Shown: positions 9,001 to 12,000, numbered from the stretch's first letter. The stretch: 18,385 bases of DNA from an uncultured Gemmatimonadaceae bacterium (GCA_963822945.1 CAWGJO010000011.1:1-18385); one strand, 5' to 3'. Made by a program: the numbers.

Positions 9001-12000
9001 CCGGAGGGCGAGCGGATCGTGGCCCTGATCCAGCTCGGCGAGCCGGCCGCCGTGCCGGACGCGAAACCCCGCCGGGCGGCGGCCGACGTCACCACCTGGG
9101 TGCCGTAGCAGTCCGTCGGGACGCGGCACCCGCCGGTGCCGGCACCGCCGGGGCCCTCCCGGCGGCGCCGGCCCGGTGCTACTTCGACAGCGCGACGTAC
9201 ACCTCCGTCGTGCTCGACGGATTGGTCCAGACGATGTCGGCCTTGCCGTCCCCGTTCACGTCGCCCACGTAGACCTGGCCGTACACTGCCCACCCTTCGG
9301 GGGGGGTGTTGGGGGCCGTCACCACGCCGGACGGGAAGGTGAACGTTCCGCTGTCGGTGCCGAATCCCACCAGCACCTGGTTGGTGGAATTGTCCAGATG
9401 GTTCAGGAGAATGTCTTCCTTGCCGTCGTTGTTGAAGTCGGCGAGGTACGGAACGGTCGGGTTGGCGCGGAGGGGCGCATGCTGCGGTGGCTGGATGGTG
9501 AACGTGCCATTGCCGTTGTTCAGGGCGCGGTGGATCCATCCGTCGTTGGCGGCCGTGGGGTCGGTGCTGCGCACGAAGACCAGATCGGCGCCGTTTCGCC
9601 CGTCGATGTCCCCGACGCGCGTGGTATAGACCGGGCTCCACCCGCTGATGTTGTAGACGGTGGCTGTCCGCAGGCTCAGGGTGCCGGTACTGTCCGAGGT
9701 CGGCGTGAACAGATCGGCGTGCGACACGTTGTTCGAGGCGCTCAGGTCGTTGAACAGAAGGTCCGCGCCGTTCACGCCGTCCAACTGTGCCGCGGCCACG
9801 GTCTCGTCCCCGGCGAAGTTGCCCGACTGGTCCACGTAGTTGGGGATCATCTCGAAGCTGGAGTCGGGGCGCGCGAGACCGAAGTAGGTGCGGAGGATCG
9901 AGGTCGAGCCGCTCCCGGCATTGGTCCACACGAGATCGCCCCGCCCGTCGTTGTTCATGTCCGCCGTGATCAGCCGATAGGTATTCCAGCCGCCGGCGGG
10001 CAACTCCTGCCGCGGCCGCCAGGTGAACGTGCCGTCGCCGTTGGAGATCGCGGCATACACGACGTTGTCGGTGGTGGTCAGGGCGTTCCACACCAGGTCG
10101 GCCTTGCCGTCGCCGTTCATATCCACCGCCGAGAGGGTGAAGTTCTCCCATCCTTCGGCCGGCGCATCGGGACTCGTGACCGGCGCCTTCACGGTGAACG
10201 TGCCGTCGCCGTTGGCCAGCACCACGTGCACCACGTTCTGCGACGGCGACGTCTGCAGTTCATCGAACACGAGATCCATCTTCCCGTCGCCGTTCACGTC
10301 GGCCTGCAGGGTGCGGCGCTGCGTCCCCGCGGCAAAGGGAATGTTCAGGGTCTGTTCCGGCAGGAAGTCGAAGCTCCCGGGCAGTTTCGGCACACAGGTG
10401 GTCTGCGTGTACGTCCCCGGTTCCGACACCTGGGCCACCTGTCCGGTGAGCGTCTTCAACTCGAACCAGAGCGGGGCCGCACTGGTGAGCGGGGGGGAGC
10501 TGGTGAAGTAGTCCGCGAGGTTTCCGGAGTGGATGGCGGCCAGGGCGTTCGAGTCGGCGCCGCCGATCTGGCTGAACCGGATTTCGGAGCGGGCCAACAC
10601 GGCGCTGTCCTGCGCGCTGAGCGAGGCGCTCACGCCGCCCGCGATCCCCTTGTACGCGGCATTCAGCGCCGCCTCGATCTCCGACGACTTCGCCTCGGCG
10701 CTCATCTCGAACACCATCATGCGCCCATACCCGATGCGTGAGACGTACAACGGCGGATTGTCGACGCCGATGCGCCCCAGATTGGCCTGCGTCTGGTACT
10801 CGGCGGAGGTGAAGGCGTCGCTGAAGAAGTCGGCCGGAGTGGCCGGCTGTGTGACGCCGGCGATGTACATCTGCTGTTGGAACTGCGCCACCACCACATG
10901 GCGGCTCACCGATTGTTTGACCGAGCCCTTGGCCGTGGCCTGGAAGCCCAGGTAGCGGCCGGAGACCCCGAACGCCTCCGCCGCCTGCTGCTCCGAGCTG
11001 AAGCTCTTTTCGTCGAAGGTGATGTTGCTGGGCGTGACCAGCCCGCCGGCCTGCGCCTTGCCCACCATGTCCTGCACCGCCTGGTTCACCGATCCCTGAT
11101 CGGGATTGTCGATGGTTCGCGTGTTGTCGGCGCTGTTGAAGTTCATCGTCACCGTCACCGGCGTGCGTTGCCGAATCGGCAGCTCCAGCAGGTCGCTCAT
11201 GGTCTTGGCGTCGCGATGGCTCTTCCCCTGAATGAGCGCGCCGGGCCAGACGACCGTCTGATCGAGGTTGAACGAGAGCGCCTTTTCCGGATTGTCGACG
11301 AAACTGAAGGTCGAATCGGTGCACTCGAAGGTCACGTTACCCAGCGAAACCAACGCCCCGGTGCTGTCGATCTGCTTCAGGGTGTCGTTCTTCTCGGTCG
11401 TCGTCGGTGTTCCGGTTGGCGTGGGGCTCTTCGAAGCCTTGGGTGGCGAGAACTGACTCCAGCTCGGCAGGCAGGTGGTGAGATCCTTGGCGCTGCTGCA
11501 CCCGCTCGTGTTGGTCGACGAGCCGTTGTTCTTCGGCGCGGTCGAATCGCTGCAGCGAGCCGTGGCGAATACCAGCAGCGTCGCCGAGGCCCAGATCGCC
11601 AGGGGCCGTACAGGGGAACCACGCATGGTGAACCTCCTCTCGAAGTCGTCGCGGGCGGGGCCAGGCGGCGAAAAGCCGAAAGCCCGCACGCAGTGCCGTT
11701 ACCTGGGAGGCGGAATTCAGGCGCGGATTCCCTCACGGCCCGCTGGACGGACCGGGGGCAACCGCGCTACGTTGGCCCCTGACTTGGAGTTCCGACCCGC
11801 CATGCCTGCATCGCCCCGCCGCCCCGCCCCCGCCGTCAGCGCCCACCCCCCCGGCGGCCGACGGCCCCCGTTCCGAGATCACCGGACTCCTGCTTTCCTG
11901 GAGGGACGGCAATCTGGACGCGCGCGACCGCGCGATGGCGATCCTCTATCCCACGCTCGAGGAGATCGCGCACCGGCAGCTAAGGGGAGAGCGCCCCGGG

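Follow-up and report, generated by a model that had tools for sequence, protein, structure and literature searches.

A predicted CDC-like pore former with a lectin-like propeller in place of domain 4, encoded beside a kinase-associated sigma factor in Gemmatimonadota

Results and discussion

A gene of an uncultured Gemmatimonadaceae bacterium from soil or marsh encodes an 815-residue protein in which the pore-forming core of the cholesterol-dependent cytolysins (CDCs), domains 1-3, is followed by a seven-bladed FG-GAP propeller that begins exactly where domain 4 (D4) begins in CDCs. The gene adjoins those of a kinase-type ECF sigma factor and a membrane Hanks kinase. The toxin gene is accompanied by a sigma factor, a sensor kinase and a promoter of its own, which gives it the look of an inducible weapon, and we favor, with modest confidence, the reading that its product is a signal-induced, single-polypeptide, glycan-targeted pore former, for which we propose a four-step scheme below. 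"The window" is the whole stretch of DNA that was analysed (18,385 nucleotides); its features are collected in Table 1.

Table 1. Features in the window, with the evidence on which each rests.
Feature	Position	Strand	Evidence
Gene of the CDC-like/propeller protein, 815 aa	9179..11626	-	Open frame and ribosome-binding site; Pfam PF01289 and FG-GAP; stop codon 9179-9181
Predicted signal peptide, residues 1-25, last residue lipobox Cys25	11552..11626	-	Cys25 invariant in 54/54 aligned members
Ser/Thr/Asn/Gly-rich disordered tether, residues 26-44	11495..11551	-	pLDDT <50 for residues 8-41; length and sequence vary across the family
CDC domains 1-3, pore-forming core, residues 45-415	10382..11494	-	VIA-align structural matches and phmmer matches to CDCs
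TMH1 region, residues 208-241, helical in monomer model	10904..11005	-	Between strands 201-207 and 242-258
YGR of the F/Y-F/Y-Xn-YGR motif, residues 300-302	10721..10729	-	G301 and R302 invariant in 54 members
TMH2 region, residues 311-347	10586..10696	-	Between strands 292-310 and 348-354
Gly-Gly pair, start of alpha-beta loop, residues 355-356	10559..10564	-	Invariant in 54 members; aligns with GG of vaginolysin and listeriolysin O
Seven-bladed FG-GAP propeller in place of D4, residues 416-815	9182..10381	-	pLDDT mostly >90; lectin structural matches
ECF-type promoter-like motif TGAGGGAA-N15-CGCCT	11708..11735	-	109 nt upstream of toxin ATG; same register in relatives
Conserved CTACGTTGG element upstream of sigma gene	11767..11775	+	Conserved in the window, L090, L091 and distant L110
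Kinase-associated ECF sigma factor (PF07638 / TIGR02999)	11802..12423	+	Pfam E 7.9e-39; TIGR02999 179 bits vs cut-off 126
Hanks-type Ser/Thr kinase with C-terminal TPR repeats	12445..15192	+	Pfam Pkinase and TPR_12

The gene and its N-terminus

The ATG of the toxin gene is at 11626 on the minus strand, with the ribosome-binding site GAGAGGAGG just 5' of it. The first-pass annotation had described an 815-residue protein with a lipoprotein-type signal, a CDC core and no domain 4, and this description holds: the frame is intact, the lipobox cysteine is never replaced in the 54 aligned family members, and Pfam and the predicted model (pLDDT 84.9) agree. A signal peptide that is cleaved by signal peptidase II closes with the lipobox [LVI][ASTVI][GAS]C. 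The lipobox of the window protein is atypical, reading T-A-R-C with Arg at -1; the family consensus is L-x-A-C, most members have L-x-[AG]-C, and in the alignment of 54 members position -1 is R or H in the window protein and its nearest relatives. From its sequence, the protein is a predicted precursor of the lipoprotein type, one whose Arg at -1 is non-canonical for signal peptidase II.

Two metatranscriptome runs, each from a different study, contained contigs at least 99% identical to the toxin gene (238 nt; 2 x 151 nt). DNA carry-over is possible, and we take these contigs as a weak hint of expression; the parts of the window that no RNA contig covers are no sign of silence.

The pore-forming core

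Pfam places Thiol_cytolysin (PF01289) at residues 123-362 (E 1.5e-25). Among solved sequences the best phmmer match is vaginolysin (2.4e-18), then listeriolysin O and intermedilysin, with the CDC-like proteins (CDCLs) of Bacteroidota far weaker (2.3e-7 and 6e-5). In VIA-align the classical CDCs match the core at Z 23-26 over model residues 43-415, among them pneumolysin (Z 26.2, rmsd 3.2 A, 335 residues, model 44-414) and perfringolysin O (PFO; Z 23.8, model 43-414 against PFO 35-389), and the Bacteroidota CDCLs match at Z 18-20, their alignments starting at residues 105-108 in 2/4 entries and at 50-51 in the other 2/4. Structural alignment to the CDCs stops at residues 414-416, which correspond to PFO 389-391, the D4 boundary. 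A pattern for the undecapeptide had found nothing in the first-pass annotation, and our own pattern search of the 815 residues again returned no undecapeptide-like motif.

CDCLs have been defined by an F/Y-F/Y-Xn-YGR motif, a downstream Gly-Gly pair and the lack of a CDC-type D4 (Evans et al. 2020, section 6 of PMC7527733, in the part of that text available to us). With FF at residues 267-268, YGR at 300-302, GG at 355-356 and no CDC-type D4, the window protein is a CDCL in this sense. F268 is invariant in 54 members, and so is Y300 in A2, an alignment of ten N-terminal halves. Whether the two transmembrane-hairpin regions are intact had been left unchecked in the first-pass annotation. Both are of fixed length (0 gaps in 54 sequences), with a beta-type amphipathic periodicity across the 54 members, the period-2 hydrophobicity power being 19.5 vs 5.0 at the helical period in TMH1 and 25.0 vs 4.1 in TMH2; in the model, helices 212-231 and 314-345 sit between core strands. 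Nothing of the CDC D1-D3 core is missing, the FF..YGR..GG motif and the two amphipathic hairpin regions included.

Counting against the reading as a pore former, an aromatic residue is not conserved at the position equivalent to the beta-4 strand position of aromatic stacking between CDC monomers, in a by-eye reading of the alignment that was placed by what we take to be the CDC residue numbers. A complex prediction for two copies of residues 45-415, run without controls, gave no answer (score 0.00) and is neutral on self-association.

Like the classical CDCs (perfringolysin O, pneumolysin, intermedilysin, vaginolysin, listeriolysin O), the protein is encoded as a single gene and has the D1-D3 fold over its whole length; the FF/YGR/GG sensor motif and the two helical bundles, whose amphipathic periodicity is of the beta type, are shared as well. 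Unlike them, it lacks domain 4, the undecapeptide and the cholesterol-recognition pair (Thr-Leu in CDCs) and carries a 400-residue propeller instead; it also has a lipoprotein-type signal, a conserved Cys102/Cys411 pair, a diderm Gemmatimonadota-like host and, probably, ECF/kinase control.

Family spread and copy number

Proteins of the same architecture form 65 homologous clusters at 90% identity, mostly in Gemmatimonadota. A profile scan of genome contigs with the full-length alignment returned mostly FG-GAP-only proteins, just 1/77 loci being a full-length relative (L003, a Bacteroidota MAG), and further relatives were sought by genome search and a core-only alignment. PF01289 occurs in 12/400 other genomes of the phylum and 2/5 of the genus in our sample, which is compatible with the frequencies reported earlier (3/16 in the genus, 15/720 in the family, 70/2019 in the phylum). 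The first-pass annotation had further proposed that CDC-like pore formers outside Firmicutes and Bacteroidota with a swapped targeting module would be new. That claim falls, as CDC-like proteins with highly variable binding domains have been published from at least ten bacterial phyla (Evans et al. 2020, PMC7527733, available text). Our literature search found no paper on a CDC-like core joined to an FG-GAP propeller and nothing relevant that brings together cytolysins, pore formation, beta-propellers and Gemmatimonadota; the species list of Evans 2020 (Fig. S4) lay outside that search.

In the genome itself, which is 88% complete, there is no second PF01289 gene besides the copy on contig C42. 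From end to end, that contig aligns with window positions 6019-16265; the identity is 95.2% and there are 92 gap openings, which marks it as a redundant contig rich in indels and not a paralog, as had been stated before. Likewise, no short CDCL partner gene lacking a binding domain lies near the toxin gene, and PF01289 is confined to C11 and the redundant C42, in line with the earlier report of no second small CDCL gene. Among ten genomes, one (G350) has two PF01289 copies, both full length with propellers.

Copy number bears on whether the protein could be one part of a complement-like, multi-component toxin as in Bacteroidota, where it would serve as the membrane-binding platform (the role of CDCL-long) and depend on proteolytic activation and a second, pore-building protein. 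Characterised CDCLs do act in this way, and CDCL-long shows no self-association (PMC11169675, in the part available to us); moreover, in sister clades a further gene, gene X, stands between promoter motif and toxin gene, and G350 has two tandem toxin copies. We nevertheless regard a multi-component toxin as improbable, given that there is no second PF01289 gene in the genome other than on the redundant contig, that the only doubled case among the ten genomes has both copies full length, that gene X lacks a CDC domain and is absent near the toxin gene in this genome, and that sequence and fold are nearer to the self-sufficient CDCs. The N-terminal hairpin 66-111 may also argue against it, being ordered in the model (pLDDT 77-89) and alignable with CDCs from residue 43, with only tether 26-44 disordered, whereas the equivalent protease-activation loop of CDCLs is disordered (PMC11169675, same portion). 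Single PF01289 genes are the commonest arrangement even in Bacteroidota, at 821/1578 genomes in the accessible text of the same paper.

A conserved cassette

The first-pass annotation had the toxin gene standing alone beside an ECF sigma factor and a kinase. The neighbours are as it described, but "alone" has to be given up, since the three genes make up a conserved cassette with a promoter motif. An orthologous kinase-type ECF sigma factor adjoins the toxin gene in 9/10 genome loci, the tenth being cut by a contig end, and a membrane Hanks kinase with TPR repeats lies beside the sigma factor in 8/9 of those. At loci of the same phylum with a CDC core but no propeller, we found the ECF in 0/4 and the TPR kinase in 0/4. 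The sigma-kinase-toxin order is the same in a low-GC metagenome locus (L135). Homology to two genomes of the same genus is limited to window positions 9183-15223, and contig C13 has an empty site, where about 50 nt from the 3' end of the toxin gene are left as a remnant. The toxin, sigma and kinase genes come and go together, as a conserved and co-inherited cassette. Linkage to the sigma factor and kinase is not universal, however: the 45 metagenome loci, many with short flanks, contain the ECF in 12, the kinase in 11 and the strict promoter motif in 9, and in L152, L136 and L120 neither sigma factor nor kinase lies within the 5-6 kb upstream.

The cassette contains no recognisable immunity gene, and no BcdI-like surface-lipoprotein immunity gene is apparent in the window. 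Just downstream of the toxin gene in the two same-genus genomes is a gene for a lipoprotein of about 140 aa without a Pfam match, the ortholog of which is on C13 in this genome. In L115, L110, L139, L136, L124, L127 and L122, the promoter motif and the toxin gene are separated by gene X, a lipoprotein gene with Big_5, PKD and a Gly-rich tail; it encodes no CDC domain, and none is found near the toxin gene of this genome.

Sigma factor, kinase and promoter

In the window, the ATG at 11802 and the 5' end of the sigma factor gene lie in different frames, and the HMM match begins at 11872; a short-read contig lacks 7 nt at 11815, and this brings the ATG into frame. Only 5 strong PF07638 sigma factors are present in the 3.97-Mb genome. 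In a tree, 17/19 toxin-adjacent sigma factors fall in one clade that does not include the 4 paralogs of the genome (support 89/83). The kinase gene begins 22 nt past the sigma gene, and its product has a kinase domain at residues 87-343, one hydrophobic helix at about 382-402 (hydropathy peak 382) and TPR repeats from about 470 to 915, predicted to be outside the cytoplasm. Pfam detects no anti-sigma domain among the neighbour genes.

This arrangement resembles the ECF43-type/Hanks pairs EcfK/PknS of Xanthomonas citri and EcfP/PknT of Vibrio parahaemolyticus, in which a sigma factor is co-encoded with a kinase-TM-TPR kinase and no anti-sigma factor is seen. Co-encoding with a Hanks-type kinase and the lack of an anti-sigma factor are hallmarks of ECF43-like sigma factors, their QTTA motif in region 2.2 bears the phospho-acceptor Thr (PMC13147305 and PMC7826278, available portions), and PknS has the same layout as the window kinase (PMC13147305, same portion). 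Toxin-adjacent sigma factors in L112, L113 and L114 have QTTA. The window sigma factor differs from both characterised systems in having QTGG, and that in L090 has QTAG, so that one Thr is kept in each; the likeness to ECF43 was set without an ECF classifier. The predicted output also differs, being a pore-forming lipoprotein here and not a T6SS or polymyxin resistance. Our literature search found no paper on the pairing of ECF sigma factors with threonine kinases in Gemmatimonadetes.

Ahead of the toxin gene, or of its two-gene operon, is a promoter-like motif with the consensus TGAGGGRA-N15-CGCY, 87-120 nt upstream, in 10 promoters from 9 genomes. The loci were scanned for the motif with regular expressions. 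In the 3.97-Mb genome as a whole the strict pattern has only two matches, and a looser pattern gives 6 genome-wide matches vs 11.8 in shuffles, which offers no indication of a larger regulon. Scans upstream of the sigma factor genes did not find the motif, and thus no autoregulation links it to the adjacent sigma factor. The conserved CTACGTTGG element there is a possible housekeeping-type -10 (TANNNT) by its sequence.

Tight, conserved linkage to a sensor kinase with a TPR domain that is predicted to be extracytoplasmic could also be expected of a protein that is no toxin, such as a lipoprotein of the surface or the periplasm whose CDC fold and propeller serve in adhesion, in forming vesicles or in remodelling the envelope, or a ligand or co-sensor of the TPR kinase. 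The missing immunity gene would suit such a role and, to our knowledge, lytic activity has not been shown for every member of the MACPF/CDC fold. We consider a non-toxin role decidedly improbable, because the features needed for nothing but the prepore-to-pore switch (YGR, GG, the two amphipathic hairpin regions) are invariant or length-fixed across 54 to 150 relatives, and because the toxin gene is placed as an output, downstream of the promoter motif and outside the sigma-kinase operon.

The propeller and the target

Pfam reports four stretches each of FG-GAP_3 (1.1e-34) and FG-GAP (5.1e-24) in the C-terminal part, and the first-pass annotation had four FG-GAP repeats replacing D4. The replacement is confirmed, but the count is seven blades, as seen from the match to seven-bladed lectins (Z 27) and from seven Ca-loop-like motifs about 58 residues apart (residues 443, 502, 556, 614, 673, 730, 789), five of which are D-x-[DN]-x-[DN]-G-x-x-D and two are variant loops. 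In VIA-align the propeller is matched best by the fungal GlcNAc lectins AAL2 and PVL (Z 27.3, rmsd 3.2 A, 334 residues, 22-23% identity) and by the UmbA4 lectin of an antibacterial toxin particle (Z 21.5), and phmmer also finds PVL (5e-9). With PVL, PAL, AAL2 and UmbA4 (of the Streptomyces umbrella particles) it shares the seven-bladed FG-GAP fold and Asp-rich loops; the likeness is one of fold, and unlike those lectins the propeller here is fused in cis to a pore-forming core. FG-GAP propellers also have non-lectin roles, as in integrins and TcB.

A role of the propeller as targeting module, as suggested in the first-pass annotation, is plausible. It has diverged more than the core in 1416/1431 family pairs, and it is the sole strongly diverged part of the two tandem paralogs of G350 (core 96-100% identical, propeller 51-78%). 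A search for relatives found 2857 representatives, and a local propeller HMM run on the 150 nearest left 102 without a propeller; a Pfam scan of 80 of these (the other 22 were left out because of size) showed other lectin modules in some, with Laminin_G_3 in 2 and ricin B, tectonin, MVL and C-type lectin in 1 each.

With regard to the target, we lean slightly toward bacterial competitors, at a little short of even confidence; eukaryotic grazers or fungi are a possible target that we hold to be somewhat doubtful. The two-component CDCLs of Bacteroidota (EaCDCL, BfCDCL; Evans 2020, Abrahamsen 2024, Johnstone 2025) likewise have a lipoprotein signal, no cholesterol-binding D4 and a variable C-terminal binding domain, and by analogy an antibacterial role as in those proteins is plausible; they differ in having a short partner gene, an adjacent BcdI-like immunity gene and a C-terminal domain other than a propeller. 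The design is also that of the BSAPs, MACPF lipoprotein toxins of Bacteroidales, in which a lipidated Cys (predicted here) and a disordered stretch at the N-terminus precede the pore-forming domain and the receptor-binding domain at the C-terminus is variable. BSAPs are single-component, and some of their C-terminal domains are small propellers aimed at O-antigen (PMC12853789, in the part available to us). They belong to PF01823 (MACPF) and a different phylum, unlike the PF01289 (CDC) protein described here, in which Pfam gave no PF01823 match at E up to 0.1; the replaced-receptor gene that is a BSAP trait was not seen beside the toxin gene.

The same mechanism might instead serve in defence against protist grazers or in attack on fungi, with GlcNAc-type or sialylated glycans taking the place of cholesterol. 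Its core is nearest to eukaryote-directed CDCs, its propeller to fungal lectins solved with GlcNAc, the cassette has no immunity gene, and an anti-amoeba weapon of Xanthomonas citri is under an ECF43 sigma/Hanks kinase pair (PMC13147305, available text). However, the characterised lipoprotein pore formers with variable C-terminal binding domains, BSAPs and CDCLs, kill bacteria (PMC12853789 and PMC11169675, available portions), strain-variable presence and propeller diversification in tandem paralogs resemble bacteriocin-like specificity swapping, and Streptomyces aims an antibacterial toxin by a lectin propeller, which in the umbrella particles is directed at a bacterial cell-wall glycopolymer according to the title of entry 9oee. 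We consider this eukaryote-directed version rather unlikely.

Proposed mechanism and significance

The scheme that we favor for a signal-induced, glycan-targeted pore former begins with the membrane Hanks kinase, whose extracytoplasmic TPR sensor would sense an outside cue, upon which the kinase would phosphorylate the adjacent kinase-type (ECF43-like) sigma factor, as suggested by their conserved linkage and by the EcfK/PknS and EcfP/PknT precedents. The sigma factor would then transcribe the toxin gene from the TGAGGGRA-N15-CGCY promoter ahead of it; the motif is there, and its match with this sigma factor is presumed. In the third step, the product would be exported and given a lipid at Cys25, to be either displayed or released on its flexible tether. 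Finally, the propeller in the place of D4, lectin-like in fold and motifs, would bind a surface ligand of another cell, probably a glycan, after which the D1-D3 core would oligomerise and its two helical bundles refold to amphipathic beta-hairpins, making a large beta-barrel pore.

A bolder reading, which we put forward tentatively and think unlikely as a whole, is that of a self-contained, mobile weapon cassette of three genes, in which the kinase senses a neighbour or envelope cue and switches on a dedicated sigma factor; this sigma factor would have no other strong target in the genome than a one-component pore former of the CDC type, aimed by an interchangeable lectin propeller. If true, a CDC-family toxin would here for the first time have a signal-transduction circuit dedicated to it, Gemmatimonadota would have their first described antagonism system, and CDC-like proteins would be shown to be capable of acting alone, outside the cholesterol paradigm.

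No branch of the CDC/MACPF superfamily is larger or less understood than the CDC-like proteins, and of these just the two-component type of Bacteroidota has been worked out. The protein described here is a one-gene form, nearer to the classical CDCs, with a lectin-type binding module and a small, defined circuit of kinase, sigma factor and one promoter, so it can be tested whether such a protein makes pores alone without cholesterol, which ligand the swapped domain binds, and which signal triggers deployment. It would also offer a first way into the study of competition by interference, or of defence against grazing, in the Gemmatimonadota, an abundant but little-studied soil phylum.

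Domain architecture of the putative toxin protein

The toxin gene lies in an open frame on the minus strand (9179-11689) of a window with high GC (64-72%), and it is unbroken, unlike the frame-split genes elsewhere in the window. In its product, Pfam detects Thiol_cytolysin at residues 123-362 (E 1.5e-25) together with FG-GAP_3 (E 1.1e-34) and FG-GAP (E 5.1e-24). By sequence, the closest solved proteins are classical cholesterol-dependent cytolysins (CDCs), namely vaginolysin (2.4e-18), listeriolysin O (5.9e-17) and intermedilysin, whereas CDC-like proteins of Elizabethkingia give far weaker matches (2.3e-7 and 6e-5). 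Residues 420-535 match the fungal lectin PVL at 5e-9.

From an alignment of 54 family members we built a structural model of the protein (mean pLDDT 84.9, pTM 0.63, disorder limited to residues 1-41), and residue-range structural alignment divides the model into two cleanly separated halves. Pneumolysin 4-358 superposes on model residues 43-415 (Z 26, rmsd 3.2 A, 335 residues), as does perfringolysin O (PFO) 35-389 (Z 23.8). The membrane-binding domain 4 (D4) of PFO is given as residues 389-500 (PMC11169675), so domains 1-3 are predicted to be complete in the toxin and to stop precisely where D4 would start. CDC-like proteins (CDCLs) of Bacteroidota are a poorer structural match (Z 18-20): alignment starts only at model residue 105-108 for the activated long form and the short-form oligomer, and at 50-51 for the other two entries. 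The second half superposes on the seven-bladed GlcNAc lectins AAL2, PVL and PAL (Z 27, rmsd 3.2 A, ~334 residues, 22-23% identity) and also on the UmbA4 lectin of the Streptomyces umbrella toxin particle (Z 21.5). Because the alignments split at the D4 boundary, with residues 416-815 matching propeller lectins, the first-pass annotation's phrase "propeller in place of D4" is literally true of the model; its four FG-GAP repeats become seven blades with seven loop motifs. A search of the protein for an undecapeptide-like pattern found none, confirming the reported absence of the CDC undecapeptide.

Positions of features in the window, the toxin protein and related loci
Feature	Location	Strand	Remarks
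Toxin gene start	ATG at 11626	-	preceded by ribosome-binding site GAGAGGAGG; product 815 residues
Promoter motif	11735-11708	-	upstream of toxin gene
Sigma-factor frame	11802-11935	+	HMM match starts at 11872; no start codon in frame ahead of it
ABC sugar-transporter set and alpha-N-acetylglucosaminidase (NAGLU, E 2e-135)	1-6282	+	upstream
Peptidase M3	6018-8463	-	broken across two frames
Nitroreductase	8449-9272	+	broken across two frames
PD40/DPP-IV-like gene	17313-18385	-	broken across two frames
Tether	residues 26-44		Ser/Thr/Asn/Gly-rich, disordered, directly after signal
Transmembrane-hairpin regions (as in CDCs)	residues 208-241 and 311-347		helical in model, between core strands
Pore-motif residues	FF 267-268; YGR 300-302; GG 355-356
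Propeller loop motifs	residues 443, 502, 556, 614, 673, 730, 789		seven blades
Small lipoprotein gene (~140-160 aa)	L090:7265-7744; L091:10694-11113	-; +	same-genus genomes; directly downstream of toxin gene; copies 62% identical
Small lipoprotein ortholog (92%)	C13:5638-6111		at empty site, away from window's toxin gene
Gene X	L115:6614-8635	+	670-aa lipoprotein: Big_5 Ig-like domain, PKD domain, Gly-rich tail
Tandem propeller-type genes of G350 (L113)	8202-10592 and 10823-13216	+	one promoter-motif copy each
Extra promoter-motif copy	L111:13673	+	5' end of second TPR-kinase gene, divergent from sigma-kinase-toxin operon

Export signal and predicted pore machinery

The lipoprotein-type signal peptide proposed earlier stands at the level of the family, where Cys25 is invariant (54/54) and preceded by the consensus L-x-A-C; in the window's own protein and those closest to it, the -1 position is Arg or His, which is unusual for a lipobox. 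Judged from sequence, the case for lipidation is good in the family and a little less secure in the window's protein. Cys102 and Cys411 are invariant as well and are sited in neighbouring long strands of the model, which suggests that they form a disulfide and that the protein lives outside the cytoplasm.

CDCs and CDCLs have in common the motif F/Y-F/Y-Xn-YGR plus a Gly-Gly pair (Evans et al. 2020, PMC7527733). In the toxin family F268, G301, R302, G355 and G356 are invariant across the 54 members. A set of 150 more remote representatives likewise has no variation at P, G and R of the YGR region or at one Gly of the pair, and hardly any at the other Gly. The two hairpin regions, which the first-pass annotation had left unchecked, are constant in length in the 54 sequences, and their hydrophobicity has a period-2 signal versus the helical period (19.5 versus 5.0 in the first, 25.0 versus 4.1 in the second).

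Family distribution and variable tails

A word-index search gave 91 proteins, and 65 clusters at 90% identity, our own included, combine PF01289 with FG-GAP in ~800 aa. Where the source is named, these propeller-form clusters come from Gemmatimonadota, Gemmatimonadales or Gemmatimonadaceae MAGs, and two from Bacteroidota. The full-length protein occurs in 5/200 other genomes of the taxonomic family (2/5 of the genus among them) and PF01289 in 12/400 other genomes of the phylum.

With a core-only profile we obtained 2857 representatives (50% clustering), 770 with E up to 1e-30. Among the best 150 of the 2857, 44 match a propeller HMM over 200 residues or more and 4 others match it in part, and the remaining 102 have other tails. 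We scanned 80 of these 102, leaving out 22 for size; a minority have recognisable tail modules, with lectin-type tails represented by Laminin_G_3 (two proteins) and ricin B, tectonin, MVL and C-type lectin (one each). Evans 2020 (PMC7527733) had already reported CDC-like genes from 10 or more bacterial phyla and described their binding domains as variable, so the earlier claim of novelty for CDC-like genes with a swapped module beyond Firmicutes and Bacteroidota falls. Literature searches, which could not take in the species figure of Evans 2020 because it is an image, turned up no mention of an FG-GAP form of CDC-like proteins.

Across the family, mean pairwise identity is 0.45 for the propeller versus 0.55 for the core, which is the higher in 1416/1431 pairs, and the tandem paralogs of G350 are 96-100% identical over the core and 51-78% over the propeller. 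Such divergence is the pattern that would be expected of a specificity domain.

Linkage to sigma-factor and kinase genes

The ECF sigma-factor and kinase neighbours listed by the first-pass annotation are present, and they are not incidental. Among 10 genomes with a propeller-type gene, a PF07638/TIGR02999 ECF sigma factor lies within ~3 kb of the toxin gene in nine, followed in 8/9 by a Hanks kinase with TPR repeats; in the tenth, G182, a contig end cuts off the 5' side of the toxin gene, and a TPR Hanks kinase adjoins it too. The genes are arranged divergently in the window, G198, G167, G355 and G524, and they run in the same direction in G294, G528, G350 and G432, so the linkage has outlived rearrangement. 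Only five strong sigma factors of PF07638 type occur in the 3.97 Mb of the window's genome, which puts chance adjacency below 1%. In a tree, 17/19 toxin-adjacent sigma factors form one clade (support 89/83), with the genome's four paralogs and metagenome loci L135 and L146 outside; L135, from a quite different lineage (GC 0.47), keeps the order sigma-kinase-toxin. Within three flanking ORFs per side, neither gene was found at any of four propeller-less CDC-core loci of the same phylum. Among 45 metagenome loci from a core-alignment search, many with short flanks, 12 have the sigma factor and 11 the kinase. Since L120, L136 and L152 show neither despite 5-6 kb upstream, the linkage is common, not universal.

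The kinase is laid out as PknS, with the kinase domain at 87-343, a hydrophobic helix near 382-402 and then TPR repeats. The sigma-2.2 motif is QTTA in G528, G350 and G355 and QTGG in the window. In the window, an ATG at 11802 is in a different frame from the sigma-factor match; a short-read metagenome contig is without 7 nt at 11815, and there this ATG would fall in frame. There is probably an indel or variant in the C/G-rich repeat at the 5' end of the window's sigma-factor gene.

A putative promoter motif upstream of the toxin gene

At a distance of 87-120 nt ahead of the toxin start codon, and in the same register throughout, stands the motif (A/G)TGAGGG(A/G)A-N15-CGC(C/T). It is present in the window, G198, G167, G294, G528, G355 and both G350 copies, and in G432 and G524 it precedes a two-gene operon of gene X and then the toxin gene. 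The count comes to 10 promoters from 9 genomes, some of them in lineages with toxin cores only 35-41% identical to the window's. The motif has a two-block shape, like ECF promoters, and besides the site at the toxin gene the window's genome contains just one further match to the strict pattern. No copy was found ahead of the sigma-factor genes, and the genome shows no enrichment of a looser pattern (6 observed versus 11.8 expected), so we infer only from the linkage that the neighbouring sigma factor reads the motif. A CTACGTTGG element is conserved upstream of the sigma-factor genes and may be an ordinary -10; this would fit a sigma factor that is constitutively made and switched by phosphorylation, by analogy with the ECF43 group, whose constitutively made sigma factor is activated by phosphorylation (PMC13147305, PMC7826278).

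Gene X lies between the motif and the toxin gene in sister clades (L115, L110, L139, L136, L124, L127, L122), where the two genes likely form an operon, and is absent near the window's toxin gene. Upstream of the toxin gene, metagenome loci L117, L118 and L119 have two motif copies on one strand with a spacing of 333 nt. The extra copy in L111 may point to a larger regulon in that genome.

The cassette and its surroundings

Between the window and two same-genus genomes, DNA homology is confined to 9183-15223, a span made up of the toxin, sigma-factor and kinase genes, and the sequences on either side are different. Contig C13 (1-9437) of the same assembly has the G198 arrangement minus this block, save for a remnant of ~50 nt from the 3' end of the toxin gene, and C13:1-5342 is a copy of window 5-5328 with 89% identity. 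Two related populations, only one of which has the cassette, were therefore probably combined in this assembly. Contig C42 is, as described before, redundant, an indel-rich version of window 6019-16265. The small lipoprotein downstream of the toxin gene in the same-genus genomes, which has no Pfam match, is a candidate immunity or accessory protein.

Indel errors in a long-read assembly could account for the split genes in the window, or the genes could be pseudogenes. In relatives, the sugar-transporter and NAGLU genes border the cassette on the opposite side, and their proximity to a GlcNAc-lectin-like propeller may be coincidental.

Expression and proposed function

Sequences nearly identical to stretches of the locus turn up in metagenome runs from soil and salt marsh. 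Parts of the toxin gene are matched at 99% identity or more by contigs (238 nt and 2 x 151 nt) in two metatranscriptome runs, which belong to two studies. This is only a hint of expression, since DNA carry-over may also account for these contigs.

The protein belongs to the broad CDC-like family. It departs from the classical CDCs at D4 and from the two-component CDCL type in that no partner gene was found, which bears out the earlier statement that a second small CDCL gene is missing. Its closest analogues in design are the BSAPs, MACPF lipoprotein toxins of Bacteroidales in which a pore-forming domain stands between a disordered N-terminus and a C-terminal domain that binds the receptor (PMC12853789). 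The most economical explanation, which we hold to be moderately probable, is that the gene encodes an inducible, lipoprotein-type, single-polypeptide pore former of the CDC family that is aimed by a lectin-like propeller.
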